From positions 917,446 to 981,445 of the forward strand of contig CAZVUO010000001.1 of assembly GCA_964630235.1 (NCBI GenBank): a DNA stretch of 64,000 nt. The letters are read 5' to 3'. The first letter of the stretch is position 1. Every line of letters begins with the position of its first letter. The translations under genes and the position numbers were made by a program. Positions 3,487 to 43,318 of the stretch are shown here, piece after piece. The DNA comes from an uncultured bacterium (GTDB lineage Bacteria > Oederibacteriota > JAAXVQ01 > JAUVAV01). The notes under the pieces were generated by a model. It was not told the origin of the DNA. It did no database searches and saw only the letters and a list, made by a program, of their open reading frames with translations.

Positions 3487-4692
3487 TTGAAGAAGCTCAA
3501 GATCAAATGCCGTCCCGAGGATTTCGTGGTCGAGGAACTGGCGGACCTGCCGCTGTCCCAGCGCGGACGGTTCGCGGTCTACTGGCTGAGCAAACGCGGC
3601 TGGAACACGGTGGACGCCCTGCGGCGCATCGCCAAGACCTGCGGCGTGCCGTTCGAGCGTTTCGCGTACGGCGGCAAGAAGGACCGGCACGGCCTGACCG
3701 GCCAGTGGGTGACCGTGGAAGACGCCCGGCCGTGCCGCGTGGAGGGGCAGCCCTACCAGTTCGCGTTCCGCGGCTATTCGGACCAGCCCATGGGACCCCA
3801 GCGGATCCAGGCTAACCGCTTCGCGATCACGGTGCGGCACCTGACCAGCGGCGATATCCGGCGCGGCCTGGCCGAACTGGAGGCGGTCCGCGCCCACGGC
3901 TTCGTCAATTATTTCGACGATCAGCGCTTTGGCGGCTGGGACCGCGACCTGGGATTCCCGGCCGAGCGCCTGCTGCGGAACGAGTTTTCCGAGGCCCTGC
4001 AGATCTTCACGGCCGGCTGGTACCCCGAGGATACGAAGACCGCCAAGGAGCGCAAGCGAGGCCTGCGGGCCGCGTGGGGCGACTGGGCCGCGTGCCTGAA
4101 GCTGGCGCAGACCCGCTGGGAGCAGGAAACCTTCGGTTATTTGGCGCGCCGTCCGGACGACCTGCTGGCTGTGCTCCGGCGTCTGTCCCGGGAAACCGCC
4201 TCGCTCGCGGTGAGCGCCTTCCAGTCCTTTTTATGGAACGAGCTGGCCCGCCGTTTGCTGCTGGAAGCGGGCTGGGCCGAGCGCCGCTATACGGGCAAGG
4301 TGGGGGACTATGTTTTCTACGGCGCGCTGCCAGCCGAGACCAGCGCCAGCCTGCTGACCTTGGACGTGCCGCTCGCTGACAGTCAGGCGCGCATGCCAGG
4401 CGGGCAGCTCAGCCGCCTGTACGCGGACCTGCTGCGTGAGCGCGGGCTCGAACCCGGGGCCTTCGGCCGCTTTCCCCTCTCCCAGGCGTTCTTCGGCTCC
4501 GCGCCGAGGCCTCTGGCCGTCAGGCCGGAGGAGGTCTCCGCGGAAACGATCCCGGACGAGCTCTATCCCCGGCACAAAGCCCTGCGACTTGGATTCACCC
4601 TGGGACGCGGCAGTTACGCCACCATGCTCATCAAAAGGTTGTTCGCCGCGCCGATCCGCCAGCCTGGAACTCCCATTCAATCCCTCCGCTAA
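3487..4692 (+). CDS. truD: tRNA pseudouridine(13) synthase TruD
   Basis: PEDFVVEE near the N-terminus and FVNYFDDQRFG catalytic motif. The ORF-track frame 2719-4692 has a spurious N-terminal extension overlapping the lipoprotein gene. TTG at 3487 sits just before the conserved N-terminus, with an AAAGAG Shine-Dalgarno-like sequence 10 nt upstream. Confidence 0.8.
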   Translation: MKKLKIKCRPEDFVVEELADLPLSQRGRFAVYWLSKRGWNTVDALRRIAKTCGVPFERFAYGGKKDRHGLTGQWVTVEDARPCRVEGQPYQFAFRGYSDQPMGPQRIQANRFAITVRHLTSGDIRRGLAELEAVRAHGFVNYFDDQRFGGWDRDLGFPAERLLRNEFSEALQIFTAGWYPEDTKTAKERKRGLRAAWGDWAACLKLAQTRWEQETFGYLARRPDDLLAVLRRLSRETASLAVSAFQSFLWNELARRLLLEAGWAERRYTGKVGDYVFYGALPAETSASLLTLDVPLADSQARMPGGQLSRLYADLLRERGLEPGAFGRFPLSQAFFGSAPRPLAVRPEEVSAETIPDELYPRHKALRLGFTLGRGSYATMLIKRLFAAPIRQPGTPIQSLR

Positions 4693-11456: not shown

Positions 11457-14400
11457 ATGAGCCCGGAAATCATTGTCGAACCCGCTGGCCTGACACCCCG
11501 GTTGCAGACCCTGATCGAGAACCTTGACCTTTCCCCCGAACATAAAAAGACCCTCCTGGACGCCCAAATCCGTTCCATCCGCATCAGCGCCCAGCCGGCC
11601 TTGCTCATCGTCCGCCTGGACGCCGCGCAGCTCCTGCCCGCCGACGGCCTGGAACAGCTGCGCGCCCGTCTCGGCGAGATGCTGGAAACCAGCGGCGGGA
11701 CGCAGATGGTGTGGGATGTGTACTATCCCGAGGGCGCCGTGACGCCCGCCCAATACTTGGAGGCCCACTGGCACGACCTGCTTGGCATCCTGTCCCGGCA
11801 CGTGCAAATGGCCCGCGCGTATCTGTCCCTGATCCAGGTGTCCAACGGCGAGCCCAATCGCCTGCGCCTGGCTCTGCCCAATGCCATGACCCTTTCCGCC
11901 CTGCAGCGCCAGTCCGGCGACAAAATCTTGAGCCAGCTCCTTACCGAACGCCTGAGCCGGGCCGTGAGCGTGCGCTTCGAGATCGGCCACTTCGAGGAAG
12001 AGCTCAAGCGCCGCGAGGCCCTGTACCAGAAGCGCCTGCGCGAGGAACTGGAGCGCATTCAGAACGAGAGCGCTGACGCACCCGCGGCCGGAACCGCCGC
12101 CTGCGAGGGCGGTCCGGCCTCGGCCCCCGCCCCCCTGCGCGTGCTCTTGGGACGCAAAATCGCCAGCCCGCCCCGCCCCATCGCGAGCCTCACGGAAGAA
12201 GAGGACCAGGTGGTGCTGGAGGGCGAGCTCATCACTTTCGAATGCAAGACCTTGCGCACCGGCCGCCAGCTCGCCCTCATGGACGTGTACGACAAGACCG
12301 GCACCTTGAACGCGCGCCTGTTCGTGGACGCCGGCAAAACGCTCTCCCCGGAGATCAAGGTCGGCGCCTACGTGCGGATGCGGGGCACCCTGCAGTTCGA
12401 TAAATTTTCCCGCGACCTGTGCCTGCTGGTGCGGGACGTCTCCCTCGGCGCCAAACCCGAGCGGCGGGACTGCGCCGCGGAAAAGCGGATCGAGCTCCAC
12501 GCCCACTCCCATATGAGCGCCATGGACGCCCTGGTCGGCGTGACCCAGCTGGTGGCCCGGGCCGCGGCCTTTGGCCATCCGGCCGTGGCCTTGACCGACC
12601 ACGGCGTGGTGCAGGGCTTTCCCGAAGCCATGGCCGCGGGAGAGAAACACAAGATCAAGGTCATCTACGGCATGGAAGGCTACCTGGTGGAGGACGAATG
12701 GCTCGGCATCAAACCGCCGCAGAAACCGCCCCGGCCTTACCATATCTGCCTGCTGGTGGCCGAACCCCGCGGCATTCGCAACCTCTACCATCTGGTGTCG
12801 GAAGCTCACCTCGGTCACTTTTATTACCATCCGCGCATTCCCCGGTCCTTGCTGGAGAAATACCGCGAAGGACTGCTGCTGGGCTCGGCCTGCGAGCAGG
12901 GCGAGCTCTTCCGCCGCCTGCGCGAGGGCGCCGCGGGGGAAGAACTCGAAACCATCGCCCGGCGCTACGACTATTTGGAGATCATGCCGCGCGAGAACAA
13001 CCGGTTCCTCATCCGTGAGGGCCTCGTGGCCGGCGAGGACAAGCTCCTGGCCATGAACCAGCGGATCTATGAACTGGGGAAGCGGCTGGGGCTGCCCGTG
13101 GCGGCCACGGGCGATGTGCATTTTCTCGAACCCGGGGACGAAGTGTTCCGCTCGATCCTCCACGCGGGCATGGGTTATGCGGACGCGGACCTGCAGGCGC
13201 CGCTGTATTTCAAGACCACCGAAGAGATGCTCGGGGAGTTCGCCTATCTGGGCCCTGACGGCGCGTACGACGCGGTCGTGGCCGCTCCGCGCAAAATCGC
13301 GGAGCGGATCGGCGACATCCAGCCCGTGAAGAAAAAGTTCCATCCCCCCAAACTGCCCCGGGCCGAGGAGGAGCTCAAATCCACGGCCCTGGCCAGGGCC
13401 CGCGAGGTGTACGGCGGTTCCCTGCCCGAAGAGGTGGAGAAGCGCCTCCGGCGGGAGATCACGGCCATCACCAAGAACCACTTTGCCTCGCTCTTCATGA
13501 TCGCGCGGCGCCTGGTGCAGAAATCCCTGGCGGACGGCTACCTGGTCGGCTCGCGCGGCTCCGTGGGCTCCTCTCTCACGGCCACCATGCTGGGTATCAC
13601 GGAGGTCAACCCCTTGCCCGGGCATTATCTGTGCACCGCCTGCCGGCACCATGCGTTTCCGGGAGACGGCCGCATCGGGCCCGACCTGCCGGACAAGTCC
13701 TGCCCGGCTTGCGGCCAGGTCATGGAAAAGGAGGGGTTTGACATCCCCTTCGAGGTCTTTATGGGTTTCGAGGGTGATAAACTGCCGGATATTGACCTGA
13801 ATTTTTCGGGAGAGTATCAGGCCAAGGCGCACAAGGCCCTGGAGGAAATATTCGACCGCGCGCATATTTTCCGCGCGGGCACCATTTCCACGGTGGCCGA
13901 CCGCATTGCCTACGGATTTGTCAAAAAATACCTCGAGGACAACAAACTGGTGGTGCGGGAGGCCGAGGTCAACCGGCTCACCCGCGGCTGCGCCGGCGTC
14001 AAGAAAACCACGGGCCAGCACCCGGGCGGCATCATGATCGTGCCGCAGGACATGGAAATTTATGATTTCACGCCCGTGCAGCGGCCGGCCGACGACCGCA
14101 GTTCGGAGATCGTGACCACCCACCTGGACTACCACGCCATTCACGACGCGCTGCTCAAGCTGGACCTGCTCGGCCATGACGATCCCACGTCCCTCAAGCG
14201 CCTGGGCGATCTGACCGGCGTGGACGTGCGCTCCATCCCGCTCGACGATCCGGAGACTCTGGCCATTTTTTCGGGCGTCTCCAGCCTGGGGCTCGCGGCC
14301 GAGGCCATCGGCACGCCCATCGGCACCTTGGGCATTCCGGAGTTCGGCACCGAATTTGTGCGCCAGATGCTGGAAGCCACCCGGCCCAAGCTGTTTTCCG

Positions 14401-15209
14401 AGCTGGTCCGGATCTCCGGACTCTCGCACGGAACGGATGTGTGGCTGAACAACGCCGCGGACCTGATTCGCGAGAAGACCGCCACGCTGTCCACGGTCAT
14501 CTCGGCGCGCGACGACATCATGAATTACCTGATTACCCGCGGCATGGATCCGGCCCAGGCATTCAAGATCATGGAATCCGTGCGCAAGGGCAAAGGCCTG
14601 TCGCCTGAACAGGAGCAGAGCATGCGCGATGCGGCGGTGCCGTCCTGGTACATTGACTCCTGCAAGAAGATCAAGTACATCTTTCCCAAAGCCCACGCCG
14701 TGGCCTACTGCCTGATGGCCTTCCGCATCGCGTATTTCAAGGTACACCATCCCACGGCTTTCTACGCCAACTACTTCACCCTGAACGCGGAGTTCTTCGA
14801 CGCCCAGCTGGTGGCGCGCAGCGGCGCGCAGAAAGTGGCCGAGCGGATCCAGGAACTGCGCGGCCTGCAGGACGCCACGGCCAAGGACAAGCACACCCTG
14901 ACCGTGCTGGAAGTGGCGCGTGAGGCGTTCGCCCGCGGCCTGCGCTTCAAACCCGTGTCGCTGATGGAGTCGGACCCGGCGAAGTTCCTGATTGTGGCCG
15001 AAGGCGTACTGCTCCCGCCCCTGGTTTCACTCTCGGGCCTGGGCGCGACCTGCGCCCAGCGCATCGTGGAGGAACGGTCCAAAACCTCATTCCGCTCCAT
15101 CGAGGATCTCTCGCGCCGCACGGGCGCCAACAAGAACGTGGTCGAGATCCTCATCCAGCACGGCTGCCTCGGCATCCTCCCCAAGACCGACCAGACCACC
15201 CTGTTTTAA
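11457..15209 (+). CDS. polC: PolC-type DNA polymerase III alpha subunit, apparently lacking the 3'-5' exonuclease insertion
   Basis: N-terminal domain, then an OB fold, then a PHP domain (IELHAHSHMS). PolC-specific GSRGSVGSSLTATMLGITEVNPLP and the CxxC...CxxC zinc module. C-terminal tandem HhH. 1250 aa, with no FDxETTG exonuclease motif between the PHP halves. Confidence 0.85.
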   Translation: MSPEIIVEPAGLTPRLQTLIENLDLSPEHKKTLLDAQIRSIRISAQPALLIVRLDAAQLLPADGLEQLRARLGEMLETSGGTQMVWDVYYPEGAVTPAQYLEAHWHDLLGILSRHVQMARAYLSLIQVSNGEPNRLRLALPNAMTLSALQRQSGDKILSQLLTERLSRAVSVRFEIGHFEEELKRREALYQKRLREELERIQNESADAPAAGTAACEGGPASAPAPLRVLLGRKIASPPRPIASLTEEEDQVVLEGELITFECKTLRTGRQLALMDVYDKTGTLNARLFVDAGKTLSPEIKVGAYVRMRGTLQFDKFSRDLCLLVRDVSLGAKPERRDCAAEKRIELHAHSHMSAMDALVGVTQLVARAAAFGHPAVALTDHGVVQGFPEAMAAGEKHKIKVIYGMEGYLVEDEWLGIKPPQKPPRPYHICLLVAEPRGIRNLYHLVSEAHLGHFYYHPRIPRSLLEKYREGLLLGSACEQGELFRRLREGAAGEELETIARRYDYLEIMPRENNRFLIREGLVAGEDKLLAMNQRIYELGKRLGLPVAATGDVHFLEPGDEVFRSILHAGMGYADADLQAPLYFKTTEEMLGEFAYLGPDGAYDAVVAAPRKIAERIGDIQPVKKKFHPPKLPRAEEELKSTALARAREVYGGSLPEEVEKRLRREITAITKNHFASLFMIARRLVQKSLADGYLVGSRGSVGSSLTATMLGITEVNPLPGHYLCTACRHHAFPGDGRIGPDLPDKSCPACGQVMEKEGFDIPFEVFMGFEGDKLPDIDLNFSGEYQAKAHKALEEIFDRAHIFRAGTISTVADRIAYGFVKKYLEDNKLVVREAEVNRLTRGCAGVKKTTGQHPGGIMIVPQDMEIYDFTPVQRPADDRSSEIVTTHLDYHAIHDALLKLDLLGHDDPTSLKRLGDLTGVDVRSIPLDDPETLAIFSGVSSLGLAAEAIGTPIGTLGIPEFGTEFVRQMLEATRPKLFSELVRISGLSHGTDVWLNNAADLIREKTATLSTVISARDDIMNYLITRGMDPAQAFKIMESVRKGKGLSPEQEQSMRDAAVPSWYIDSCKKIKYIFPKAHAVAYCLMAFRIAYFKVHHPTAFYANYFTLNAEFFDAQLVARSGAQKVAERIQELRGLQDATAKDKHTLTVLEVAREAFARGLRFKPVSLMESDPAKFLIVAEGVLLPPLVSLSGLGATCAQRIVEERSKTSFRSIEDLSRRTGANKNVVEILIQHGCLGILPKTDQTTLF

Positions 15210-16874: not shown

Positions 16875-16903
16875 TTGACATTTGTGGACAAAAGGATCAA
16901 AAT
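16875..16903 (+). promoter_or_regulatory. Putative sigma-70 promoter for the regulator/Ehr-like operon (TTGACA-N17-CAAAAT)
   Basis: Perfect -35 about 50 nt upstream of the regulator ATG, in the divergent region with murB. Confidence 0.35.
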
Positions 16904-16953
16904 GACCATCTTTTAGACAGGCGGAGAAAAATGTCAGTAGCCAAGAGGATTCC

Positions 16954-17655
16954 ATGGAATTATCCGTCAGGGAAGTCGCCAAACTCCTGAAAGTATCCGA
17001 AAAGACGGTCTACCGGTGGATTGCGGAAAAAAAATTGCCGGCCTTCCGCATCCACGACCAGTACCGGTTCAACCGGGTGGAATTGCTGGAGTGGGCCACG
17101 ACCCGCCGCTTGAACGTTTCCCCGGAAATCTTCGCCGAACCTTCCTCTGAAGCGCCCTTGCCCAGCCTGGCCGAGGCCCTGCAGGCCGGCGGCGTTTATT
17201 ACCGCATCGCCGGCCAAACCCGCGATGAAGTCCTGGCCGCCGTGGTCGAGCACATGCGCCTGCCTGATGCGGTGGACCGGAAGTTCCTGCTGCAAGTGCT
17301 GCAGGCGCGCGAGGAACTGGGCTCCACGGCCATCGGCGAGGGCATCGCCATTCCGCACGTCCGCAATCCCGTGGTCCTGCACGTGGGGCAGCCGACCATC
17401 ACCCTCAGTTTCCTGGAAACGCCGGTGCCGTTCGGCGCGCTGGACGGCCAGCCCGTGCGGGCCCTGTTCACGCTGATCAGTCCCACGGTCCGCGCCCACC
17501 TGCACATGCTGTCGCGCTTGGGGTTCGCGCTGCGCGACCCGGAGCTCAAGCGGCTGGTGCGGGAGCAAAGCCTGCGCGAGAAAATCTTCTCCGCCGTGTC
17601 GGCCGTGGAACAGGCGTTGACCGAGGCCGAATCCAGGGAGGGAAGCGGTTCATGA
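16954..17655 (+). CDS. Transcriptional regulator: N-terminal excisionase/MerR-like HTH fused to a PTS EIIA(Ntr)/fructose-type domain
   Basis: AKLLKVSEKTVYRWI helix-turn-helix. C-terminal GSTAIGEGIAIPH signature with the phosphorylatable His. Stop overlaps the start of the next gene (ATGA). Confidence 0.75.
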   Translation: MELSVREVAKLLKVSEKTVYRWIAEKKLPAFRIHDQYRFNRVELLEWATTRRLNVSPEIFAEPSSEAPLPSLAEALQAGGVYYRIAGQTRDEVLAAVVEHMRLPDAVDRKFLLQVLQAREELGSTAIGEGIAIPHVRNPVVLHVGQPTITLSFLETPVPFGALDGQPVRALFTLISPTVRAHLHMLSRLGFALRDPELKRLVREQSLREKIFSAVSAVEQALTEAESREGSGS

Positions 17656-19634
17656 TCGCCGCCGGATTCGCCTTATCCCTGGGATTGCTGCTCGCGGGCG
17701 GGCTTCTGGCCTGGATGTGTTCCGGCCGTCCGGCCCTGGCCGCCATCCTGGGCAGCGCCAGCGCTTGCGCGGCCGGCGGGATCGGCTTGGCCGCGTCGCT
17801 GGCGGCCCTGCATCCGGGGAACGCCTTCAGCCTCAACTGGCCGTGGGTCATGCCCAACGCATCCTTGTCCCTGGGCGTGGATCCCCTGGCGGCGTTTTTC
17901 CTGGCAGCGCTATTCGCGGTTTCCGGCTGTGCGGCGCTCTTTGGCTGGGGGTATTTGCGGCAGGACCACGAACCAGCCCGGCAGGGCGGCCACTGGTTTT
18001 TCTTCAACCTGCTGGTGGCGAGCATGGCCGTGGTCCTGCTGGCGCGCAACGCCCTGCTGTTCCTCGTGGCCTGGGAAGTCATGACCGTGTCTTCGTATTT
18101 CTTGGTGGTGCACGATCACGAGGAAGAACGCGTCCGCAGGGCGGGATGGATTTACCTGACCGCGTCCCATATCGGCGTGCTGTTCCTTTTGGGCTTTTTC
18201 GCGCTGGCCGGCCAGCAGGCCGGCGGTTTCGAATTTTCCCGCCTCCAGAGCGCGCTCCCGGATTCCGCCGGTTGGCTGTTTTTACTCGCCTTGGCCGGCT
18301 TCGGGTTGAAGGCGGGATTCGTGCCCCTGCACGTGTGGCTGCCCGAGGCGCATCCGGCCGCGCCGAGCCACGTATCGGCGCTCCTGTCGGGCGTGATGAT
18401 CAAGCTCGGCATCTACGGCCTGTTCCGGGTCCTGACTTTTTTTGCCGAGCCGGCCGCATGGTGGGGAGGGCTCATGGTCGGCATCGGCCTGCTTTCCGGC
18501 GTTTGCGGGGTGGCTTTCGCCCTGGCGCAGCACGACCTCAAACGCCTGCTGGCCTACCACAGCGTGGAGAACATCGGCATTATCGCGCTGGGCCTGGGCC
18601 TGGCCCTGATCGGGCGCAGGCTGAACCTACCCGCGCTGGCCGCGCTCGGGGCCTTGGGCGCGCTGCTGCACGTTTGGAACCATGCATTGTTCAAAGCCCT
18701 GCTCTTTCTCGGCGCGGGCGCCGTGGTGCGTCAGACCGGACTGCGCAGCGTGGATGCCGCGGGCGGCCTGTTGAAACGCATGCCCGCCACCGGCGCGGCG
18801 TTTTTTGTGGGCGCGGCTGCCATCTGCGGCTTGCCGCCGTTCAACGGCCTGGTGAGCGAATGGCTGATCTATACGGCCGGATTCACGGGCCTGACGCAGG
18901 CGCCGGCAGCCTGGGCGCCTGCGGCCATCGCCACGGTGGCCGGCTTGGCCGCGATTGGCGGCCTGGCGCTCGCCTGCTTCGCCAAGGTTTTCGGCGCGGT
19001 CTTTCTCGGCGAACCGCGCACACCGGAGGCCGCGGCCGCCACTGAAGCCCATTGGACCCTGCTCGCGCCCATGCTCGCGCTGGCCGCCATCTGCCTGGCC
19101 ATCGGTCTGGCCGGGCCTTGGCTGTGCCTGGCTCTGAGGCCGGCCGTCTTGTCCATCCTGGGCGTCGAGGCCGCCCTCGGCGCCGGGGCCGTGGCTGTGG
19201 CCGCCGGCTGGATGCTGCGCCTGACCGGGGTCATGCTGATCCTGCTGGCCGCGACCGCGCTGATCATCTGGCTGCGGAACCGCAGACTGCGGAAGCCCGT
19301 TGCTTCCGGGCCGACGTGGGATTGCGGCTTCGCGGACCCTTCGCCCCGCATGCAGTATACGGCCGCGTCCTTCAGCCAGCCCCTGACCCGCTCCCTGGGA
19401 CTCTTGCTCAGGCCGCAAACGCAAGCCCAGCTTCCAGCCGGGCTGTTTCCCGGCCCGGCCCATTGGCGCTCCCATGTGTCCGACTTGTTCCAGCGGCTTC
19501 TGCTGGAGCCGTTGTTCCGCGGCGCGGCGGCCGGGTTGTCGTGGCTGCGCTGGCTGCAGCACGGCCGGATCCAGCTCTACGTCCTCTACATCGCCGCGGC
19601 GCTGATTCTGCTCGCCCTCTGGGGGTGGCTGTGA
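17652..19634 (+). CDS. Antiporter-like membrane subunit (NuoL/MrpA/HyfB family) of an energy-converting hydrogenase-related (Ehr-like) complex
   Basis: 660 aa, many TM helices, WLPEAHPAAPSHVSALLSGVMIKLG motif typical of the NuoL/HyfB family. Confidence 0.8.
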   Translation: MIAAGFALSLGLLLAGGLLAWMCSGRPALAAILGSASACAAGGIGLAASLAALHPGNAFSLNWPWVMPNASLSLGVDPLAAFFLAALFAVSGCAALFGWGYLRQDHEPARQGGHWFFFNLLVASMAVVLLARNALLFLVAWEVMTVSSYFLVVHDHEEERVRRAGWIYLTASHIGVLFLLGFFALAGQQAGGFEFSRLQSALPDSAGWLFLLALAGFGLKAGFVPLHVWLPEAHPAAPSHVSALLSGVMIKLGIYGLFRVLTFFAEPAAWWGGLMVGIGLLSGVCGVAFALAQHDLKRLLAYHSVENIGIIALGLGLALIGRRLNLPALAALGALGALLHVWNHALFKALLFLGAGAVVRQTGLRSVDAAGGLLKRMPATGAAFFVGAAAICGLPPFNGLVSEWLIYTAGFTGLTQAPAAWAPAAIATVAGLAAIGGLALACFAKVFGAVFLGEPRTPEAAAATEAHWTLLAPMLALAAICLAIGLAGPWLCLALRPAVLSILGVEAALGAGAVAVAAGWMLRLTGVMLILLAATALIIWLRNRRLRKPVASGPTWDCGFADPSPRMQYTAASFSQPLTRSLGLLLRPQTQAQLPAGLFPGPAHWRSHVSDLFQRLLLEPLFRGAAAGLSWLRWLQHGRIQLYVLYIAAALILLALWGWL

Positions 19635-20533
19635 TGGACCTCGCGAGCCTTCTGCTTTGGCTGGCCGCGCTGCTGCTCTCGCCACTGTGGCTGGGCCTGA
19701 TCGAGCGCGTCAAAGCGTTCTTCGCCGGCCGCCGGGGGGCGCCCCTGCTGCAGGTTTATTATGACCTGGCAAAACTCTGGGGCAAGCAGGCGGTGTACAG
19801 CCGCACGGCCACCTGGGTTTTGCGTTCCGCGCCGGCCTGGAGCCTGGCCGCGATCCTGGCAGCCACCCTGTTCGTTCCGTGGGGCGGCTGGCCGGCCCTG
19901 GCGGTTTTTCCCGGAGACATGATCGTCTTGTTCTACCTGCTGGCCCTGGCCCGCTTTGGGCTGGTGCTGGGCGCCCTGGACACGGGGTCCGCGTTCGCGG
20001 GCATGGGCGCCAGCCGCGAAGTCTGGCTCTCCGCCCTGGCCGAGCCCGTGCTGTTCCTGGGGCTGGCGGTGCTGGCGCTCCAGCACAGGCAGTGGAGCCT
20101 GACCGCGTTGCTGGGAGGCCCGGCCGGCTGGCCGGACCTCGCGGTGTGGCTGGTGGCCCTGGCGTGGGCCGTGGTGCTGGTCGTGGAAAACGCGCGCCTG
20201 CCGGTGGATGATCCGAACACGCATCTGGAACTGACCATGATCCATGAGGCCATGATTTTGGACCATAGCGGGCCGGACCTGGCGCTGGTCACGGCCGGGA
20301 GCGCCGTGAAATTTTCCATCTTCTCCGCGCTCTTGGCCGGGTTGTTCGTGCCCCAGGGGCTGGAGCCGGGCTGGCTCAAGCTCGCGGCCGCAGGGGCCGG
20401 CATGGCGGTGGCCGCCGTGGCCGTGGGGGTGACCGAGTCGGTTTTGGCCCGCTGGCGTCTGGTCAGCCTGCCGCGCCTGCTCGCGGGCGCAGCCGCTCTG
20501 GCCGTGATCGCCCTGTTGTGGGTGATGCGATGA
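19634..20533 (+). CDS. NuoH/HycD/HyfC-like membrane subunit of the Ehr-like complex
   Basis: About 299 aa polytopic protein, with HycD-like length and pattern. TGATG overlap with the upstream gene. Confidence 0.7.
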   Translation: MDLASLLLWLAALLLSPLWLGLIERVKAFFAGRRGAPLLQVYYDLAKLWGKQAVYSRTATWVLRSAPAWSLAAILAATLFVPWGGWPALAVFPGDMIVLFYLLALARFGLVLGALDTGSAFAGMGASREVWLSALAEPVLFLGLAVLALQHRQWSLTALLGGPAGWPDLAVWLVALAWAVVLVVENARLPVDDPNTHLELTMIHEAMILDHSGPDLALVTAGSAVKFSIFSALLAGLFVPQGLEPGWLKLAAAGAGMAVAAVAVGVTESVLARWRLVSLPRLLAGAAALAVIALLWVMR

Positions 20534-21219
20534 ACCTGCAACCGGATTTCATGAACGTCCTGTCGGTTTTGCTGATCCTGTGCACCCTCGCGCTGTTCGG
20601 CGCCAGCCGCCTGTCCTATTGCATCCGGGTGGCCGCGGTCCAGGGGTTTGTGCTGGGCCTGCTGCCGGTTTTCACCAGCGCGGCCGGTATGCACCCCTCG
20701 GCCTGGGTCATGTCCGGATTGGCGATAGCCCTCAAGGCGTTCGTCTTTCCCTGGCTGCTGCTGCGGGCCTTGCGCCAGGCGAATATCCGGCATGAGATCG
20801 AACCCAGCGTGGGATTCAGCTGGTCGATCTGGATCGGCATCCTGCTGCTCGCGGTCTGCGTGCTGGCCGGCCGGGGCATGGCTTCCTGGCCAGGCGCGCC
20901 CGAGGGCCTGCAGTTGCCGGCCTCCTTCTTTATGGTGCTGGCCGGATTTTTTCTGATCGCGGCCCGGCGCCAGGCCCTGACCCAGGCGGTCGGCTACCTG
21001 GTCCTCGAGAACGGCGTGTTTGTCTTCGGCAGCCTGCTGGTGCCCGAAGCGCCGCGCCTGCTGGAGTTGGCGGTGCTCCTCGACCTGTTGGCCGCGGTCT
21101 TCATCATGGGCATCGCCATCTTTCACATTCACCGGGAATTCGACCACATTGACACCAACCGGCTGAACTTTTTGCGCGATTGGCACCGGAAAGAACCCCT
21201 GCGGGAGCCGCGGCCATGA
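20530..21219 (+). CDS. HyfE-like small membrane subunit of the Ehr-like complex
   Basis: 229 aa, about 6 TM helices. ATGA overlaps on both sides. Confidence 0.6.
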   Translation: MNLQPDFMNVLSVLLILCTLALFGASRLSYCIRVAAVQGFVLGLLPVFTSAAGMHPSAWVMSGLAIALKAFVFPWLLLRALRQANIRHEIEPSVGFSWSIWIGILLLAVCVLAGRGMASWPGAPEGLQLPASFFMVLAGFFLIAARRQALTQAVGYLVLENGVFVFGSLLVPEAPRLLELAVLLDLLAAVFIMGIAIFHIHREFDHIDTNRLNFLRDWHRKEPLREPRP

Positions 21220-22655
21220 TCCTCGTCCTCGCGCTTTTGCCTCCCCTGGCCGGCGCGGCGGCCCTGCTGCTGCGCGGCCCCCGCCTGATCCGGGGCTGGC
21301 TGGTGACGGCCGCGCTCGGGCACTTTCTGCTGACCGTGGCCGCGCTGGCCGGCGCGCCAGCGCCTGCCTGGCACGGCTGGCTGGAACTGGACGCGGCCGG
21401 CAAGATTTTTTTAGGCACCACCAGCCTGTTGTTCCTGGTGGTCAGCGTGTATACGCTCGATTTCCTCCGGAGAGAAAAGCGGACGGACGCCGAGGACCGG
21501 CCCTACCCGGAGTCGGTGTTCGTGGCCTGCCTCCTGTTTTTCCTCGGCGCCATTACCTGGGTGATCCTGAGCCAGCACCTGGTCCTGCTGTGGGCGGCGG
21601 TCGAAGCCACCACGCTCTCTTCCGCGCCGCTCATTTATTTCCATCGCAACGACCGTTCCCTGGAAGCCACCTGGAAATACCTGCTCCTGTGTTCGGTCGG
21701 AATCGCCCTGGCCCTGCTCGGCACGTATTTTCTGGCCATGGCCGCGGGCGGCAGCGGCGCGGGGCTCACGCTGCGGGAACTGGCCCAGCCCGGCCAGGCC
21801 CTGCGCACGCCCTGGCTGAAAGGCGCGTGGATTTTGCTGCTGGTGGGATACGGCACCAAGATGGGCCTGGCGCCCATGCATTCCTGGCTGCCGGACGCGC
21901 ACAGCGAAGCTCCCTCGCCGGTTTCGGCCCTGCTCTCCGGCGCGCTGCTCAACGGTGCGTTCCTCGGCATCGCGCGCGTGCTCTCCGTGTGCGCGGCCTC
22001 CGGGCAGGGCGACTTTGCCCGGCAGACGCTGATCGCCCTGGGCTTGTTTTCCATGCTGGTGGCCGCGGTGTTTATCCTGGGCCAGACGGACTTCAAACGC
22101 ATGCTGGCGTTCTCTTCGGTGGAGCACATGGGCGTCCTGGCGCTCGGCTTGGGCATCGGCGGGGCGGGCGTTTACGCCTCGCTGCTGCACGCGGTCAATC
22201 ACTCCCTGGCCAAGGCCATGCTGTTTCTGCTGGCCGGCAACCTGCTGGCCGCCTTCGCGACCAAAACCATCACCGCGGTGCGGGGAGCGGGCCGCCTGCT
22301 GCCTGTCACCGGGGCCCTGTGGCTGGCAGGCTTCTTCGCCATCTCCGGCATCCCACCCTTCGGATTGTTCTGGAGCGAATGGCTGATGCTCAGGGCGGCG
22401 CTGTGGAGCGGGGCGTGGCTGGCGGGCGTGCTCTATCTGCTGTTCTTGCTGGTGGTGGTGATCGGCATGGCCTCCATCGTGGTGCGCATGGTGCAAGGCG
22501 AACTGCCGCCCGAACGGAAGCCGCTGATCGAGCGCAGCCTGGCTGTCCTTCCGCCTGCCGTACTTGCGCTCTGCGCGCTGCTGCTCGGCCTGTACCTGCC
22601 CGCGTTCCTGCGTTCGGCGCTGGAACAGGCCGCGGCCTTGTTGGGAGGCGGTTAG
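21216..22655 (+). CDS. NuoN/NuoM/HyfF-like antiporter subunit of the Ehr-like complex
   Basis: 479 aa. GTKMGLAPMHSWLPDAHSEAPSPVSALLSGALL motif. Confidence 0.75.
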   Translation: MILVLALLPPLAGAAALLLRGPRLIRGWLVTAALGHFLLTVAALAGAPAPAWHGWLELDAAGKIFLGTTSLLFLVVSVYTLDFLRREKRTDAEDRPYPESVFVACLLFFLGAITWVILSQHLVLLWAAVEATTLSSAPLIYFHRNDRSLEATWKYLLLCSVGIALALLGTYFLAMAAGGSGAGLTLRELAQPGQALRTPWLKGAWILLLVGYGTKMGLAPMHSWLPDAHSEAPSPVSALLSGALLNGAFLGIARVLSVCAASGQGDFARQTLIALGLFSMLVAAVFILGQTDFKRMLAFSSVEHMGVLALGLGIGGAGVYASLLHAVNHSLAKAMLFLLAGNLLAAFATKTITAVRGAGRLLPVTGALWLAGFFAISGIPPFGLFWSEWLMLRAALWSGAWLAGVLYLLFLLVVVIGMASIVVRMVQGELPPERKPLIERSLAVLPPAVLALCALLLGLYLPAFLRSALEQAAALLGGG

Positions 22656-24116
22656 ATGACTCCCGGGGTCCGCACCCGCAATCAGGAGGCCGTGAGCCTG
22701 AACGAGATTCCCAACCTGGACGCCGGGGCGTTTCGCGCCGCGGTGCTGGCAGCCGTGTCCAGGGGGAGCCGCTTGTCCGCCTGGTTCGCGGGGCCTGCCA
22801 TTGGGGCCGCGCGCAGGCTGTACGCGATCTTGGCCGATGACCACAGCGGCACGCTAACCTGGCTGAGCACCGGGATGGAAGATGAATGGCCAAGCCTCAC
22901 GCCGGACTGTCCCCAGGCGCACGCGTTTGAGCGGGAACTGGCGGAAGACGCGGGGCTGCATCCACAGGGGCATCCCTGGCGCAAGCCCCTCAGGCGCCTC
23001 CGCGACCACGGGGAATTCTTCCGCGTCCTCGGCGAGGAAATTCACGAGGTCGCCGTGGGGCCGGTGCACGCGGGCGTGATCGAACCCGGCCATTTCCGCT
23101 TCCAGTGCGCTGGCGAAAAAGTATTGCACCTGGAAATCGCCCTTGGATACCAGCACCGCGGCGTGGAGCAGGCGCTGCCCCAGGCCGCGCCCAGGTCGGC
23201 CATGGCCATCATCGAAACCGCGGCCGGCGATACCAGCATCGGGCATGCCCTGGCCCATGTCGGCGCGCTCGAAGCACTGTCCGCGGCCCACGTGCCGCCG
23301 CGCGGCCTGGCCGTGCGCGCCCTGGCCCTGGAACTGGAGCGCCTGGCCAACCATGCGGGCGACCTGGGCGCCCTGGCCCAGGACGTGGGCTATCTGCCCA
23401 CCGCGTCCCACTGCGGCCGCCTGCGCGGAGACCTGCTGAACCTCACGGCCGAGCTCTGCGGCAGCCGCTTCGGCCGCGGCCTGGTCCAACCCGGCGGCGC
23501 GGCTTTTGACCTGGAGCCGGAACGGGCGGCCCGCCTGGAAAACAAGCTGGTTGCCATTCTCGCGGAACTGCATTTGGCCCTGGACCTGACGTGGAACTCG
23601 CCCTCCGTGCTGGCGCGCTGGGAGCAAACCGGCCGGCTCCCGCGCAAAACCGCGCTGGACCTGGGCGTGGTGGGACCGGCGGCCCGGGCCTGCGGATTGG
23701 CTCGCGACGTCAGGCAGGATTTCGCCTCGGGCATGTACGCGCTGGCGCATATCCCCATCGCCCTGGCGCACGGCGGGGACGTTTTTTCCCGGGCCCTGGT
23801 ACGCTGGATCGAAATTCAGCGCTCGGCTGCGTTCGTGCTGGAACAGCTGGGGTCCCTGCCCGCGGGCCCGGTCCGGGACGGAATGCCGGACCTCAAGCCC
23901 CGGCTGGCCGCGGCCGCGCTGGTCGAAGGCTGGCGAGGCGAGATCTGCCACGTGGCCATGACCGGCGACGACGGCCGGCTGGCCGCGTATAAGATCGTGG
24001 ACCCGTCGTTCCACAATTGGCAGGCGTTGGCCCAGGTCATGCGCAACGGGGAGATCAGCGATTTTCCGCTGTGCAATAAAAGCTTCAACCTGTCCTACTG
24101 TGGACATGATCTATAG
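22656..24116 (+). CDS. NuoC-NuoD/HycE-like large subunit lacking all NiFe-ligating cysteines (Ehr large subunit)
   Basis: NuoC-like N-terminal part (AFERELAEDAGLHPQGHPWRKPLRR). The core GPVHAGVIEPGHFRF...LGYQHRGVEQ is hydrogenase-like. Position L1 reads ETAAGDTSIGH where a hydrogenase has ERICGICSxxH. Position L2 reads IVDPSFHNW where a hydrogenase has DPCxxCxxR. The C-terminal tail is NuoD-like (SYCGHDL). Confidence 0.8.
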   Translation: MTPGVRTRNQEAVSLNEIPNLDAGAFRAAVLAAVSRGSRLSAWFAGPAIGAARRLYAILADDHSGTLTWLSTGMEDEWPSLTPDCPQAHAFERELAEDAGLHPQGHPWRKPLRRLRDHGEFFRVLGEEIHEVAVGPVHAGVIEPGHFRFQCAGEKVLHLEIALGYQHRGVEQALPQAAPRSAMAIIETAAGDTSIGHALAHVGALEALSAAHVPPRGLAVRALALELERLANHAGDLGALAQDVGYLPTASHCGRLRGDLLNLTAELCGSRFGRGLVQPGGAAFDLEPERAARLENKLVAILAELHLALDLTWNSPSVLARWEQTGRLPRKTALDLGVVGPAARACGLARDVRQDFASGMYALAHIPIALAHGGDVFSRALVRWIEIQRSAAFVLEQLGSLPAGPVRDGMPDLKPRLAAAALVEGWRGEICHVAMTGDDGRLAAYKIVDPSFHNWQALAQVMRNGEISDFPLCNKSFNLSYCGHDL

Positions 24117-24231
24117 GCCTGCGTTTCCAGCTTCCTGATCCTTGCCGTAAACCCGGCAGACAGGGTCCGGAAGCTTCCCCCTGCGGCCCAAGAGGGGCAA
24201 GGGGAGTGGGGCACCAAACAGGAGTCACCGT

Positions 24232-24981
24232 ATGCTGAAAGCCTTGCTGGCCCGGCTGAAGACCGGATGCCGAACCCAACCTTTTCCACCCGGGTCCGCG
24301 GCGGTTTCCGACCGCTTCCGAGGCAGGCCCGAGCTATGCGCGGGCACCGGACCCGCGGACCCCGGCGCCTGCCCGACTGCCGCGTTCAGCCGGCAGGACG
24401 GGGGCTTGAACCTGGACCTGGGCCGCTGTTTGTTCTGCGGGTCCTGCCCATTTAGCCAGCCTGCGGGTCCGCTGGCGTTCAGCCGGGATTACCGGCTGGC
24501 TGCTTCCACGCGCGGAGACTTGAACCTGCGGCTCGGCGCCGAGTTCCATCCCGCCCGGCCGCTGGGCGAGAACCTGCGCCGTTTGCTGGGCCGCGCCTTG
24601 CGCCTGCGCCAGGTCAGCGCCGGCGGCTGCAACGCCTGCGAAGCCGACGCCAATGTGCTGACCACGGTCGGGTTCGACTTGGGGCGTTTCGGCATCCAAT
24701 TCGTGGCTTCGCCCAGGCACGCGGACGGGCTGCTGGTCACCGGGCCGGTCACGCTCAACATGCGGCTGGCCCTGGAAAAGACCTATGCCGCGGTGCCGGA
24801 GCCCAAGCTGGTCATCGCCTCCGGCGCGTGCGCCATTTCCGGCGGGCCGTATGCGGGGCAGAAGCAGGTCCTGAACGGCGTGGACCGGCTCCTGCCCGTG
24901 GACCTGTACGTGCCCGGCTGTCCGCCGCATCCCTTGACCCTGTTGGACGGCCTGTTGCGCCTGCTGGGCAGGATCCGCTGA
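24232..24981 (+). CDS. NuoB/HycG-like small subunit with an N-terminal ferredoxin-like (HycF-remnant) extension
   Basis: GGCNACE...ASGACAISGG...VPGCPP cluster-N2-type motifs. The N-terminal 60 aa carry CP(TAAF) and CLFCGSCP, enough for one additional [4Fe-4S] cluster. AGGAG RBS. Confidence 0.8.
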   Translation: MLKALLARLKTGCRTQPFPPGSAAVSDRFRGRPELCAGTGPADPGACPTAAFSRQDGGLNLDLGRCLFCGSCPFSQPAGPLAFSRDYRLAASTRGDLNLRLGAEFHPARPLGENLRRLLGRALRLRQVSAGGCNACEADANVLTTVGFDLGRFGIQFVASPRHADGLLVTGPVTLNMRLALEKTYAAVPEPKLVIASGACAISGGPYAGQKQVLNGVDRLLPVDLYVPGCPPHPLTLLDGLLRLLGRIR

Positions 24982-25074
24982 TCCGGCCAGCCGGAGCAGG
25001 CGCAGGGCGATTTTTAGCTTGACTTTGGCGGCCTGGGAGCCTATGCTGGCTGCCAGTCAACCACTTTTTCAGTA

Positions 25075-25110
25075 AGAGTGGGAGCAGGTCTGCCCACTCT
25101 TTTTATTTTT
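25075..25110 (+). terminator. Rho-independent terminator after the Ehr-like operon
   Basis: AGAGTGGG-agcaggtctg-CCCACTCT hairpin (8-bp stem) followed by TTTTTATTTTT. Confidence 0.65.
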
Positions 25111-25191
25111 CGGGACAGGCCGGAACGCACCCGAAAAGCCTTTTAAAATAAGCGGAAAAGTGGCGAGGCGAACCTCAAAGAGGGGCGAAAC

Positions 25192-40121: not shown

Positions 40122-40535
40122 ATGATTCCTTTTGAGATCCTAGAGCATACGGCGGACGTGGGGCTTAGGGTCCAGGGCCGGACGCTGGAGGAACTGTTCG
40201 AGAACGCGGCCCAGGGCCTGTACGCGCTGGCCTTGGCGGCGCCTCCGGCCGGGGCGGTGACCGAGAAGGTCACTCTGCACCTGGCCGCTGACGGCCCGGA
40301 ATCCCTGCTGGTCGCGTTCCTGGAGGAACTGGTATTCCGCCTCTACAGCCGGTGCCAGATGGCGATCAGCGCGCGCCTGTCCTTTCCCACGCCCAATCGC
40401 TTGAGTGCCGAGGCGGCGTTCGTTCCCGTCGCGGCCGAATCCTATGCGGTGGAAGTGAAAAGCCCCACGTACCACCGGCTGAAGATCGAGCAGGGGCCTG
40501 AAGCCTGGCTCGCGGAGGTCTATTTTGACCTGTGA
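40122..40535 (+). CDS. Archease (RtcB activator)
   Basis: MIPFEILEHTADVGLRV N-terminus. Confidence 0.85.
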   Translation: MIPFEILEHTADVGLRVQGRTLEELFENAAQGLYALALAAPPAGAVTEKVTLHLAADGPESLLVAFLEELVFRLYSRCQMAISARLSFPTPNRLSAEAAFVPVAAESYAVEVKSPTYHRLKIEQGPEAWLAEVYFDL

Positions 40536-40556
40536 GGGCGGGGAGAACTGAACGTC

Positions 40557-40991
40557 GTGGCCATACGCAAGCTCAAGCGGAAAAAGGGAAGTCTTTATCC
40601 CCACCGATATTTTCTGGGCACGGGGTTCGGGACCGAGGACCTGGACAATAAACCCGTGGAGGATAAATACCGAGCCCAGGTGCCGAGATCAGAGGCCCTG
40701 ATCAAGATCGGGACCGTGGAAAAACTTCCACACGGCACCCTGAAGTGCTTTCTGCGACGGGGGATCGCGGTCGTCGGCTTATACCAGGCCGGGAAACCCG
40801 TGGGGTACGAGCTGTTGTATAAACCGACACCCGAGGAACGCCAGCGCGGCATCCCGGAGTGGAAGTTCGACCTCCAGAACACCTCGGTCTTGGGCACGGA
40901 TTGGGATTACCAGGACATCACCACATTCTTTTGGACCGTGCGCGGTTTGCGCAAGAACGGCAAGGCAGAAAAGACCATCAATCAAAGCTAG
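40557..40991 (+). CDS. Hypothetical protein
   Basis: 144-aa ORF at the edge of the low-GC island with no recognisable motif. Putative GTG start. Confidence 0.4.
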   Translation: MAIRKLKRKKGSLYPHRYFLGTGFGTEDLDNKPVEDKYRAQVPRSEALIKIGTVEKLPHGTLKCFLRRGIAVVGLYQAGKPVGYELLYKPTPEERQRGIPEWKFDLQNTSVLGTDWDYQDITTFFWTVRGLRKNGKAEKTINQS

Positions 40992-41116
40992 CGGACCGGA
41001 CAGGGCCGAGGTTCTGCGCGGCATGGCGAAGGGTCCGTGGCAGGTGTGGTGATTGACCAGCGGGATTTCGGTTTCGTGTAGACAAACGCTTTTAATGCTG
41101 TTGCGGAGGAAAAATC

Positions 41117-41908
41117 GTGAAAATATTGAAATATCTCATAAAGCATATTTTACGCATGGCAGGAGTCGGAACGTATAGCATAAAAAATGTTCATCGCCAT
41201 TATATGTTTGAAGTCCTCGAGCATCTCAAAAAGATGTCTTTTTACCCCAGCACGGTTATTGATGTGGGCGTAGCGTACGGGACAAATGATCTCTATGAGA
41301 AATTTCCGCGAGCCCATCATTTATTAGTTGAACCACTCGAAGAGTACAAAAGCGTTTTGGATAAAATAGCCAAGAAATATAACGCGGAATATGAATTGGC
41401 GGCCGCGGGGGCCAAGGAAGGAGTTCTCGAGATCAACGTTCATCCGGATCTGTCCGGATCATCATTATTAAAAGAGGTCGAAGACAGTGACGTCAATGGC
41501 GTTCCCCGCAAAGTCAAAATAATAACGCTTGATCATTTGTGCCTTCGAAAAAAAACGACCGGCCCTTATTTAATCAAGATTGATGCGCAAGGAGCTGAGC
41601 TTGAGGTGCTGGAAGGCGCGCAAAACATATTAAAAGAAACCGAAGCGATTGTTTTGGAGGTGTCTTTTTTTCAGTTTTACCAGAATGGCCCGCTGATGTA
41701 TGACGTGGTCAAGTGGATGAAGGATCATGGGTTTGCTGCCTACGATTTGTATGGAGGTCAAAACCGTCCCCTCGACGGCGCCTTGGCTCAAATTGACATG
41801 GTTTTTGTTAAAGAACATGGAATTTTCAGGAAAAATCATTATTACGCCACCCGCGAACAACGAAAGAAGCATACGAAGTTGGTGAGTACAGAAAATCCGA
41901 AAAACTAA
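41117..41908 (+). CDS. FkbM family SAM-dependent methyltransferase
   Basis: VIDVGVAYGTND SAM motif and IDAQGAELEVLEGA. About 41% GC against 65% in the surrounding sequence. GTG start with a GGAGGA RBS. Confidence 0.75.
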   Translation: MKILKYLIKHILRMAGVGTYSIKNVHRHYMFEVLEHLKKMSFYPSTVIDVGVAYGTNDLYEKFPRAHHLLVEPLEEYKSVLDKIAKKYNAEYELAAAGAKEGVLEINVHPDLSGSSLLKEVEDSDVNGVPRKVKIITLDHLCLRKKTTGPYLIKIDAQGAELEVLEGAQNILKETEAIVLEVSFFQFYQNGPLMYDVVKWMKDHGFAAYDLYGGQNRPLDGALAQIDMVFVKEHGIFRKNHYYATREQRKKHTKLVSTENPKN

Positions 41909-42064
41909 TATAGGTCTTGAATTAATCGGTGCGATTTATTTTAGCGGAACAGAAAAGTGGTTTCGATTTGCTGCGCGGGTTTCATCCCCGGTTGTACAGT
42001 GATGGTATTCACTTGACAGTGTCCGCGAATGGCCTATCATTGTAAGGAGTAGGTTTTTACTTCT

Positions 42065-42181
42065 CGTCACCCCGGCCCAGTCCTGTCTGATCTGGGCCAG
42101 GGCGAAAGCCGGGGTCCAGTATCAGGCATTAATCAAATCAAATTCCCTGGATTCCGGCTAACTACATGCCGGAAAGACGAG
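42065..42181 (+). repeat. R-family structured repeat, copy E
   Basis: CGTCACCCCGGC...GCCGGGGTCCAG...CCTGGATTCCGGC...GCCGGAAAGACG. Confidence 0.7.
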
Positions 42182-42276
42182 CGGACGGGATTTCCGTGGC
42201 AGGATTATTTACCTGCGATATCAGGTGAATACTATCACTACACATGCCGGTAGCAGCGGTATTTCCGAGGGGTCGC

Positions 42277-43232: not shown

Positions 43233-43318
43233 GCGCAAAGCGTCGGGTGACTTGCGGCGCGTGAACCAGGAGCAGGAAGGAATTATCGGCAGAACGGAGA
43301 TTTGTTGCGTCCTGCAGC

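Follow-up and report, generated by a model that had tools for sequence, protein, structure and literature searches.

The Ehr (energy-converting hydrogenase related) family was reportedly described about twenty years ago, by Coppi in 2005, and is said to have been surveyed by Marreiros et al. in 2013. We analysed one of its members on a 64,000-nucleotide (nt) stretch of DNA, referred to here as the window, from an uncultured bacterium of the Oederibacteriota (contig CAZVUO010000001.1, positions 917,446 to 981,445 of the forward strand), in which seven co-directional genes of the plus strand with a high third-position GC content occupy positions 16954–24981. In the literature, the name Ehr and the gene designation ehrABCDLS are used for exactly this cluster (PMC6688271, PMC7894505). 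The ehr cluster of Geobacter sulfurreducens is GSU0739-0745, whose products include EhrA-1, EhrC, EhrL and EhrS (PMC7894505, PMC8691401). ehr genes have also been reported from Methylacidiphilum (PMC6688271), ammonia-oxidising archaea (PMC10432482) and Margulisbacteria and their relatives (PMC6349859), while the Ehr of comammox Nitrospira is described as close to group 4f and without the CxxC motifs (PMC10284858), and the Rv0081-87 cluster of Mycobacterium tuberculosis has been counted as Ehr (PMC6728331). The function of Ehr is given as unknown in these reports (PMC10284858, PMC10432482, PMC7894505), and our searches of the literature turned up no study on the function of either Ehr or the mycobacterial Rv0082-87 cluster.

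Open reading frames (ORFs) and profile matches identified the seven genes as a regulator gene followed by six genes for complex-I/hydrogenase-like subunits, in agreement with an initial annotation of the window made from the sequence. Genes were assigned by Pfam and NCBIfam profile searches, and best-match pairs by BLASTP against Escherichia coli references. The locus is almost certainly an Ehr-family operon, a canonical ehrABCDLS set with a family-specific regulator. Its subunit set, the loss of the CxxC pairs, the retained Fe–S cysteines, the gene order and the grouping of EhrL all fit this identity, which the initial annotation had proposed, and the profile searches, the large-subunit tree and the neighbourhood survey were each consistent with it. 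With a NuoC-like domain in EhrL and a fused small subunit, eight complex-I-type modules are carried by six polypeptides. For comparison we used 80 loci, the best of 359 relatives from a scan of GTDB species representatives, which come from Fibrobacteria, Acidobacteriota, Planctomycetota, Verrucomicrobiota, Lentisphaerae, Zixibacteria, Spirochaetes, Myxococcota, Gemmatimonadaceae, Elusimicrobia, Desulfobacterota and Geobacteraceae. The order A(-A2)-B-C-D-L-S is kept in all 80, including those of Geobacter argillaceus (L069) and Trichlorobacter thiogenes (L050). We consider that the operon probably encodes a redox-driven ion pump with an electron acceptor other than H+.

In EhrL, a NuoC-like domain at the N-terminus precedes a NuoD/HycE-like one. 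BLASTP paired it with HycE/HyfG (~28% identity, E = 2e-50) ahead of NuoCD (7e-18), and phmmer against the PDB returned E. coli HycE (7z0s_E, 1.3e-43) as the top match, followed by Thermus thermophilus Nqo4 and Pyrococcus furiosus MbhL. Group 4 [NiFe]-hydrogenases carry two cysteine pairs, in the L1 (RxCGxCxxxH) and L2 (DPCxxCxxR/H) motifs, and EhrL has neither. When EhrL was aligned by MAFFT with HycE, HyfG, NuoCD and the four closest cysteine-bearing relatives from a 50%-identity library, all four Ni–Fe ligand positions were found to be substituted, by A190, T193, S480 and G483, so that the absence of Ni–Fe ligand cysteines from the large subunit, claimed by the initial annotation, was confirmed. 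The L1 motif ER(V/I)CGxCxxxH reads ETAAGDTSIGH, with the arginine also replaced by T188, and the C-terminal LCYSCTDR reads LSYCGHDL, with its arginine replaced by L486. A conserved aspartate, D192, lies between the first pair of former ligand positions.

It is scarcely conceivable that misalignment has hidden the cysteines of a genuine [NiFe] hydrogenase in EhrL, or that the cluster is cut from a longer operon for complex I or Hyf. Such an error could hide behind the overall similarity to HycE/HyfG and NuoCD and behind two cysteines close to the C-terminus of EhrL, but three independent alignments (phmmer with HycE, MAFFT with the cysteine-bearing relatives and an alignment of 100 representatives) agree that A190, T193, S480 and G483 stand where the ligands would be. 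The genes on either side of the cluster are murB and nusA, and related loci have the same six genes as a closed unit. It is a self-contained cassette that recurs with unrelated flanks and is not a piece of complex I or Hyf.

The substituted ligand positions are themselves conserved. Of the 486 EhrL residues, 146 (30%) are conserved in at least 95% of the 80 loci, the signatures GD[T/S] and NKSFxLSYxG.DL are retained across ~100 distant EhrL representatives, and the tail SDFPLCNKSFNLSYCGHDL is nearly invariant in 120 close homologues. The two cysteines near the C-terminus, C473 and C482, occupy neither ligand position. We considered them as substitute metal ligands and rejected them because both positions vary across the wider family, with C/I/V/N at 473 and C/S/A at 482 over the ~100 distant representatives. 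As a separate observation, C151, C268, C473 and C482 co-vary among 101 representatives, with all four present in 29 and none in 19. This joint presence and absence may reflect shared ancestry; the four residues may also form a disulfide or a new metal or redox site in the subfamily of the window and Geobacter, and C268 is probably far from the pocket, as judged from helix geometry.

An AlphaFold2 model of the EhrL monomer, built from 52 sequences, was confident overall, with a predicted local distance difference test score (pLDDT) of 84.3 and a predicted template modelling score (pTM) of 0.88. Its best structural match was HycE (7z0s_E), with a template modelling score of 0.85 over the full length including the NuoC-like domain, followed by the fused NuoCD of E. 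coli, and no closer solved structure was found. Confidence was low in residues 117–125, in the β1–β2 loop (135–144) and in the C-terminal tail (471–486), which are the parts expected to surround the pocket and to touch the partner subunits.

The small subunit EhrS is a fusion of a HycF(NuoI)-like and a HycG(NuoB)-like protein, and its two halves pair with HycF/HyfH and with HyfI/HycG. The C-terminal domain retains C133, C136, C200 and C230, which align with the proximal [4Fe-4S] ligands of HycG, HyfI and MbhJ. The N-terminal half-ferredoxin retains C47, C66, C69 and C72; that is, of two HycF-type CxxCxxCxxxCP motifs, EhrS has kept the fourth cysteine of the first (C47) and the first three of the second. 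If EhrS follows the wiring usual in 2x[4Fe-4S] ferredoxins, the four would be ligands of one cluster, which we take to be the equivalent of N6b next to N2, with the N6a-like cluster presumably lost. Each of the eight cysteines is present in at least 95% of 79 relatives. EhrS thus appears, from its ligand sets, to keep two [4Fe-4S] sites, of which one corresponds to the proximal cluster of NuoB/HycG and the other to the second cluster of HycF/NuoI.

These features bear on the possibility that Ehr works with a formate dehydrogenase (FDH) encoded elsewhere, which would dock on EhrS so that formate oxidation drives reduction of the acceptor and ion translocation, with no production of H2. Such an arrangement has been proposed for Margulisbacteria and Saganbacteria from the co-occurrence of fdhA (PMC6349859). 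All Ehr subunits were detected in G. sulfurreducens and were most abundant in formate-grown cells (PMC7894505), pH 5 induces seven 'group 4f' genes together with two FDHs in Methylocystis (bioRxiv 10.1101/2025.08.29.672306), and the closest solved relative of EhrL is the large subunit of the E. coli formate hydrogenlyase (FHL). However, neither an FDH nor a HycB/HyfA-like connector subunit was found in the cluster or among the scanned ORFs of the window, or as a gene conserved within 10 kb on either side in the 80 loci, and the HycF cluster believed to face HycB has lost its ligands in EhrS. We therefore regard an FDH-linked complex as improbable. More broadly, no NuoEFG, FDH or hydrogenase maturation genes (hyp, endopeptidase) were detected among the ~40 ORFs scanned of 51 candidates in the window, as the initial annotation had also noted.

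The membrane arm retains the elements expected of an ion translocator. EhrA matched HyfB (37% identity, 1e-110) and the NCBIfam profile of hydrogenase 4 subunit B (6e-179), and EhrD matched HyfF (39% identity, 6e-83) and the profile of hydrogenase 4 subunit F (3e-102). Both retain the antiporter-type glutamate of transmembrane helix (TM) 5, lysine of TM7, His/His/Lys set of TM8-11 and glutamate of TM12. In EhrA, these channel residues are E142, K220, K251, H340, H344, K348 and E403, conserved in at least 95% of the relatives with the exception of K251; in EhrD they are E130, K215, H325, H329, K333 and E388. EhrB was identified by Pfam NADHdh (2.6e-29) and paired with HycD/HyfC (HycD, 7e-31). 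EhrC matched the NCBIfam hydrogenase 4 membrane subunit (8.8e-25), HyfE (2e-9) and, weakly, Pfam Oxidored_q2. The acidic residues E160 and E179 of EhrC are conserved, as are those of EhrB, and the TM5-6 loop of EhrB carries the conserved motif PVDDPNTHLELTMIHE..LDHSGP. The histidine-rich character of this loop was examined as an Ehr-specific trait and rejected, since a sister [NiFe] hydrogenase has it too.

This sister enzyme is encoded in one of the comparison loci (L034, 12738-20350), from a metagenome-assembled genome, by a second, paralogous cluster of six genes that directly follows the Ehr cluster. All four NiFe cysteines are present in its large subunit (ERMCGVCSLSH ... LCYSCTDR), HycF and HycG are fused in its small subunit as they are in EhrS, again with one HycF-type cluster, and the unusual loop PVDxPxTHLELTMxHE of EhrB recurs in its NuoH-like subunit. 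In a crude neighbour-joining distance tree of 105 large subunits, the four cysteine-bearing representatives grouped with this second cluster inside the wider Ehr clade. The sister hydrogenases (for example the second cluster of L034 and the representatives P0217, P0227 and P0247) have the A-B-C-D-L-S order and fused small subunit of Ehr and share with it the motifs IEPGHFRF, ELERLxNHxGD, DFPLxNKSFxL and PVDxPxTHLELTMxHE. They keep the four NiFe cysteines and the C-terminal arginine, whereas Ehr has A/S, T/S, S and G at these ligand positions, leucine in place of the arginine, and D192. Their function, like that of Ehr, is uncharacterised; they are probably HydDB group 4f, or 'Ehf', a label we take from PMC10284858. 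Because the sister cluster shares the fusion, the relay and the loop, the Ehr-specific changes are essentially confined to the metal pocket. Ehr is then derived from a hydrogenase of the same architecture, with its donor side, Fe–S relay, coupling loops and channels inherited unchanged.

The same comparison helps to weigh the idea that Ehr is an Mrp-like cation/proton antiporter, either redox-gated or redox-independent, that serves pH or K+/Na+ homeostasis and in which the Fe–S clusters act as a sensor or structural element. Two antiporter-type subunits together with NuoH/NuoK-like modules favour this idea, as does the EIIA(Ntr) domain of the regulator, E. coli PtsN being known to control K+ transport. 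Moreover, Ehr is listed among the candidates for pH homeostasis in Methylacidiphilum (PMC6688271), and a related 4f cluster is acid-induced in Methylocystis (bioRxiv 10.1101/2025.08.29.672306). On the other hand, the eight Fe–S cysteines are conserved in at least 95% of the relatives, and the E143-P-G-H-F-R motif and the TM5-6 loop of EhrB show the same degree of conservation in Ehr as in the sister NiFe enzyme. Conserved Fe–S cysteines combined with hydrogenase-type coupling elements fit a working electron path better than a sensor, and an antiporter of this kind is accordingly unlikely.

Ehr is both widespread and under selective constraint. More than 8000 homologues of EhrL at E < 1e-10 were found in a set of 5.8 billion proteins, distributed over at least a dozen phyla; sources named among the matches listed include NC10, Planctomycetota, Gemmatimonadota, Binatia, Elusimicrobiota and FCPU426. 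At E below 1e-30, the relatives form 780 clusters at 50% identity. The closest genome is a metagenome-assembled genome of FCPU426, which has the murB...ehr...nusA synteny of the window and whose EhrL and NusA share 75% and 91% identity, respectively, with those encoded there. The EhrL of the window is 51-54% identical to its counterparts at the Geobacteraceae loci. The tree placed EhrL of the window beside those of FCPU426 and Geobacter/Trichlorobacter, all of which carry A-T-S-G at the ligand positions and aspartate at position 192, and far from HycE/HyfG and NuoCD. Relative to the FCPU426 locus, the ratio of nonsynonymous to synonymous substitution rates (dN/dS) was 0.12-0.24 in all seven genes, compared to 0.08 for nusA. 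All of the subunits are thus under strong purifying selection, so that the complex is not a relic.

A decaying origin has nevertheless been claimed for the Ehr of G. sulfurreducens KN400, namely that of a non-functional hydrogenase relic drifting under relaxed selection; the catalytic NiFe site is indeed gone, and missense mutations accumulated in ehrA-2 and ehrB over 17 years on an electrode (PMC13194489). The dN/dS values of all seven genes, the near-invariance of 30% of EhrL residues across phyla, the conservation of the substituted ligand positions themselves (the GD[TS] and SYxG signatures), the thousands of intact copies and the expression of the proteins in G. sulfurreducens (PMC7894505, PMC8691401) all speak against it. 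Purifying selection together with proteomic detection in Geobacter contradicts the claim of non-function, and we consider a relic very unlikely.

We clustered the ORFs that flank the 80 loci within 10 kb on each side and found no conserved partner gene, and no FDH, ferredoxin, hyp or quinone-related gene, among them. The sole recurrent neighbours were Geobacteraceae-specific, a MazF-like toxin and an IclR regulator. In Geobacteraceae (e.g. L069 and L077, ~4166-4531), a MazF/PemK-like ORF lies beside the divergent regulator gene, and in L043, L058, L068 and L069 (~11550-12340) an IclR-type gene is located between ehrL and ehrS; both labels come from reading the ORFs.

Taken together, these data suggest that the Ehr complex is more probably than otherwise a functional redox-coupled ion translocator. 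In the mechanism that we propose, a soluble low-potential carrier, presumably ferredoxin, would deliver electrons to the HycF-like cluster of EhrS, from which they would pass through the proximal cluster to an acceptor other than H+ at the junction of EhrL, EhrS and EhrB, and this transfer would be reversibly coupled to the translocation of H+ or another cation. Ferredoxin is a tentative choice, and the chances are somewhat against it. The leading guess for the acceptor, a membrane quinone, is a weak and doubtful one, made because the pocket takes the place of the quinone site of complex I and D192 adjoins the position of the quinone-binding tyrosine.

Several points weigh against this redox-pump mechanism. 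The residues aligned with the quinone ligands of complex I are G191 and I142 (at the positions of what we take to be Tyr87 and His38 in the numbering of T. thermophilus Nqo4, the NuoD homologue), so the complex-I quinone ligands are, by alignment, absent from EhrL. The segments of EhrL that are most conserved, 135-144 and 471-486, are modelled poorly in the monomer, which leaves the geometry of the pocket unsupported. The assignment of a retained N6b-like and a lost N6a-like cluster follows the cysteine assignments of complex I and is tentative. The neighbour-joining tree carries no support values, and the G. sulfurreducens sequences lie outside the comparison. We found no biochemical data on any Ehr complex in the literature, and donor, acceptor and ion are all inferred. 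Finally, some Ehr-bearing lineages reportedly have no quinone biosynthesis (PMC6349859), which weakens the case for quinone as a universal acceptor.

The regulator encoded by the first gene combines an N-terminal excisionase/MerR-type helix-turn-helix (HTH) domain, HTH_17, with a C-terminal EIIA type 2 domain of the phosphotransferase system (PTS). The latter was detected by Pfam PF00359 (1.2e-21) and by TIGR01419 (5e-16, below the cutoff of that profile). It has the PTS_EIIA_2 fold and the G-I-A-I-P-H phospho-histidine motif of PtsN-like proteins but, unlike PtsN, is fused to HTH_17. The histidine of GIAIPH (H135) and a second one (H182) each recur in at least 95% of 52 regulator homologues. 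Of 53 loci with 1.2 kb or more of sequence upstream of ehrA, 49 encode a homologue; in 40 its gene directly precedes the cluster in the same orientation, and in nine, all of the Geobacteraceae type, it is divergent and paired with a second ehrA. The regulator is 46-69% identical across phyla and as conserved as the structural subunits. A search from the regulator yielded thousands of proteins with the same two-domain architecture, and in a reverse test all three regulator homologues, chosen solely for their long contigs, were encoded directly upstream of ehrA(A)BCDLS. The HTH–EIIA regulator thus belongs to the ehr cassette. Some loci (L090, 5128-6684; L066, 3541-4955) have two tandem HTH–EIIA regulator genes upstream of ehr.

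The region upstream of the regulator gene holds a sigma-70-like promoter overlapped by candidate operator half-sites, which are a weak version of the TGTCC/GGACA repeats of the relatives. Among 41 upstream regions of non-Geobacter loci, TTGACA occurs in 23 (~1 expected), TGTCC/GGACA in 27 (~10 expected) and the tandem arrangement TGTCY-N4-7-TGTCY in 14 (0.2 expected). Centred 40-70 nt ahead of the start codon of the regulator gene, the operator-like repeats often take the form TGTCC-N5-TGTCC, across phyla. This pattern suggests that the promoter is probably autoregulated through a candidate repeat operator under the control of EIIA phosphorylation. In this scheme, the HTH–EIIA(Ntr) protein would bind the TGTCC repeats over its own promoter and would be controlled by phosphorylation of H135.

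A bolder combination of these results is that a metal-free pocket centred on D192 (GD[T/S], SYxG.DL) replaced the NiFe centre in a working respiratory or ion-homeostasis machine and that the cassette is switched by PTS(Ntr)-type phosphorylation of the TGTCC-binding HTH–EIIA regulator. We consider it rather unlikely that all of this holds. If true, the Asp192 pocket would represent a second route from a hydrogenase to a complex-I-like enzyme, independent of that taken by complex I itself, and the PTS(Ntr) switch would tie a relative of complex I to the signalling of carbon, nitrogen and K+ status.

The coordinates of the genes and of the other features are listed in Table 1. The initial annotation had described the six structural genes as joined by overlapping stops and starts. 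Four junctions do overlap, with ATGA at regulator/ehrA, ehrB/ehrC and ehrC/ehrD and a single shared nucleotide at ehrA/ehrB, whereas ehrD and ehrL abut and ehrL and ehrS are separated by 115 nt, compared to the 10-35 nt usual in relatives. A hairpin predicted in this spacer folded no better than shuffled sequences (z = -1.46), giving no sign of a structured element there.

Table 1 Features of the ehr locus and its borders, in window coordinates.
Feature	Position	Strand	Description
Sigma-70-like promoter	16875..16903	+	TTGACA, 17 nt, CAAAAT; 10/12 match; AT-rich region upstream of regulator gene
Candidate operator half-sites	16886..16919	+	GGACA 16886, TGACC 16903, AGACA 16915; overlap promoter
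Regulator gene	16954..17655	+	233 amino acids (aa); HTH_17 + PTS_EIIA_2
ehrA	17652..19634	+	660 aa; HyfB/NuoL-like antiporter-type membrane subunit
ehrB	19634..20533	+	299 aa; NuoH/HycD/HyfC-like; Pfam NADHdh
ehrC	20530..21219	+	229 aa; HyfE-like, C-terminal half NuoK-like
ehrD	21216..22655	+	479 aa; HyfF/NuoN-like antiporter-type subunit
ehrL	22656..24116	+	486 aa; large subunit; Complex1_49kDa, weak N-terminal Complex1_30kDa
ehrL-ehrS spacer	24117..24231	+	115 nt; AGGAG ribosome-binding site 8 nt before ehrS ATG
ehrS	24232..24981	+	249 aa; small subunit; Oxidored_q6, HycF/NuoI-like N-terminus
Hairpin and T-run	25074..25110	+	first intrinsic terminator after ehrS

The clean terminator that the initial annotation placed behind the operon is real as a hairpin with a T-run, which the automatic terminator scan missed and folding recovered; its role is probably a different one. 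A promoter-like TTGACT-17-TATGCT (25019-25047) sits upstream of the hairpin, an alternative pairing is possible between the upstream segment ACCACUUUU and the hairpin's 5' arm, and the ehrS–nusA intergenic region (24982-25191) is conserved with the FCPU426 relative (L005, ~12180-12423). The hairpin is probably a terminator/antiterminator attenuator in the nusA leader and not a dedicated ehr terminator.

Upstream of the operon, murB and a GNAT gene lie on the opposite strand, and downstream follow nusA, infB, a DUF503 gene, rbfA, an nrnA-like gene, truB, ribF, a HU gene and uvrD. The other matches among the scanned ORFs of the window are housekeeping genes (rseP, ispG, proS, glycosyltransferases, DNA polymerase III alpha, polX, rtcB, archease, gatA/B, polA, rho, thyX and prfA). 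The DNA polymerase III alpha subunit (11457-15209, 1250 aa) has an OB fold before the PHP domain, a PolC-like order. Between archease and gatA, a stretch at ~40500-44000 with a GC content of 0.52-0.56, against ~0.65 elsewhere, contains short ORFs without Pfam matches and a hemerythrin-domain gene (43319-43756, minus strand), and may be a foreign insert. An Rfam scan of the whole window gave zero matches.

Compared with respiratory complex I, Ehr has homologous NuoB, C, D, H, I, K and L/M/N modules with the channel residues kept and, like complex I, has no NiFe site. It differs in that the NADH-oxidising NuoEFG module and the 11-14-subunit operon are absent from the locus and NuoA and NuoJ were not detected, and in that EhrS has the hydrogenase-type CxxC where the complex I small subunit has a CC motif. 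E. coli Hyf and Hyc/FHL (PDB 7z0s) include the best characterised homologues of every Ehr subunit, at an identity of only 27-39%, and their large subunit is a NuoC–NuoD fusion, as is EhrL. Ehr is without their HyfA/HycB, HyfD, HyfJ/HycH, HycI, FdhF and NiFe site, and its HycF is cut to one cluster and fused to HycG. The group-4-derived respiratory complexes of P. furiosus, MBS/Mbx (6u8y) and MBH (6cfw), are far more distant from EhrL (MbsL 5e-19 and MbhL 6e-31, compared to HycE 1e-43) and carry an Mrp-type multi-subunit module that is absent from Ehr. Among hydrogenase-like complexes, MBS is the one characterised example in which the reduced substrate is not H+.

The Ehr of G. sulfurreducens, GSU0739-0745 (ehrA-1/A-2/B/C/D/L/S), has the same subunit set and order as the window, with a large subunit free of NiFe cysteines and a small subunit with the Fe–S cysteines, and the same HTH–EIIA regulator is found nearby in Geobacteraceae loci. 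Geobacteraceae carry two ehrA genes and the window one; the window regulator gene is co-directional with and translationally coupled to ehrA, whereas in Geobacteraceae it is oriented divergently, as are ehrA-1 and a MazF-like gene. The initial annotation had judged the window operon a good candidate for defining what these complexes do, on the grounds of its six-gene form and dedicated regulator. Both are the family norm, and the operon exists in the culturable G. sulfurreducens, a better model than the uncultured, FCPU426-like host of the window. The window copy adds no new kind of system; it is a routine member of a known family with culturable hosts and offers no special route to function. 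What the comparison adds is the regulator linkage, the candidate operator, the two-cluster wire, the pocket signature, the purifying selection and the sister hydrogenase. Ehr is among the most widespread relatives of complex I without a known function, with reports from Geobacter, Nitrospira, ammonia-oxidising archaea, methanotrophs and mycobacteria, and to learn its function would close a gap both in microbial bioenergetics and in our picture of the evolution of complex I from hydrogenases. For work in a tractable host, the co-travelling regulator, the candidate operator, the two-cluster wire, the Asp-centred pocket signature and the evidence of purifying selection provide handles.

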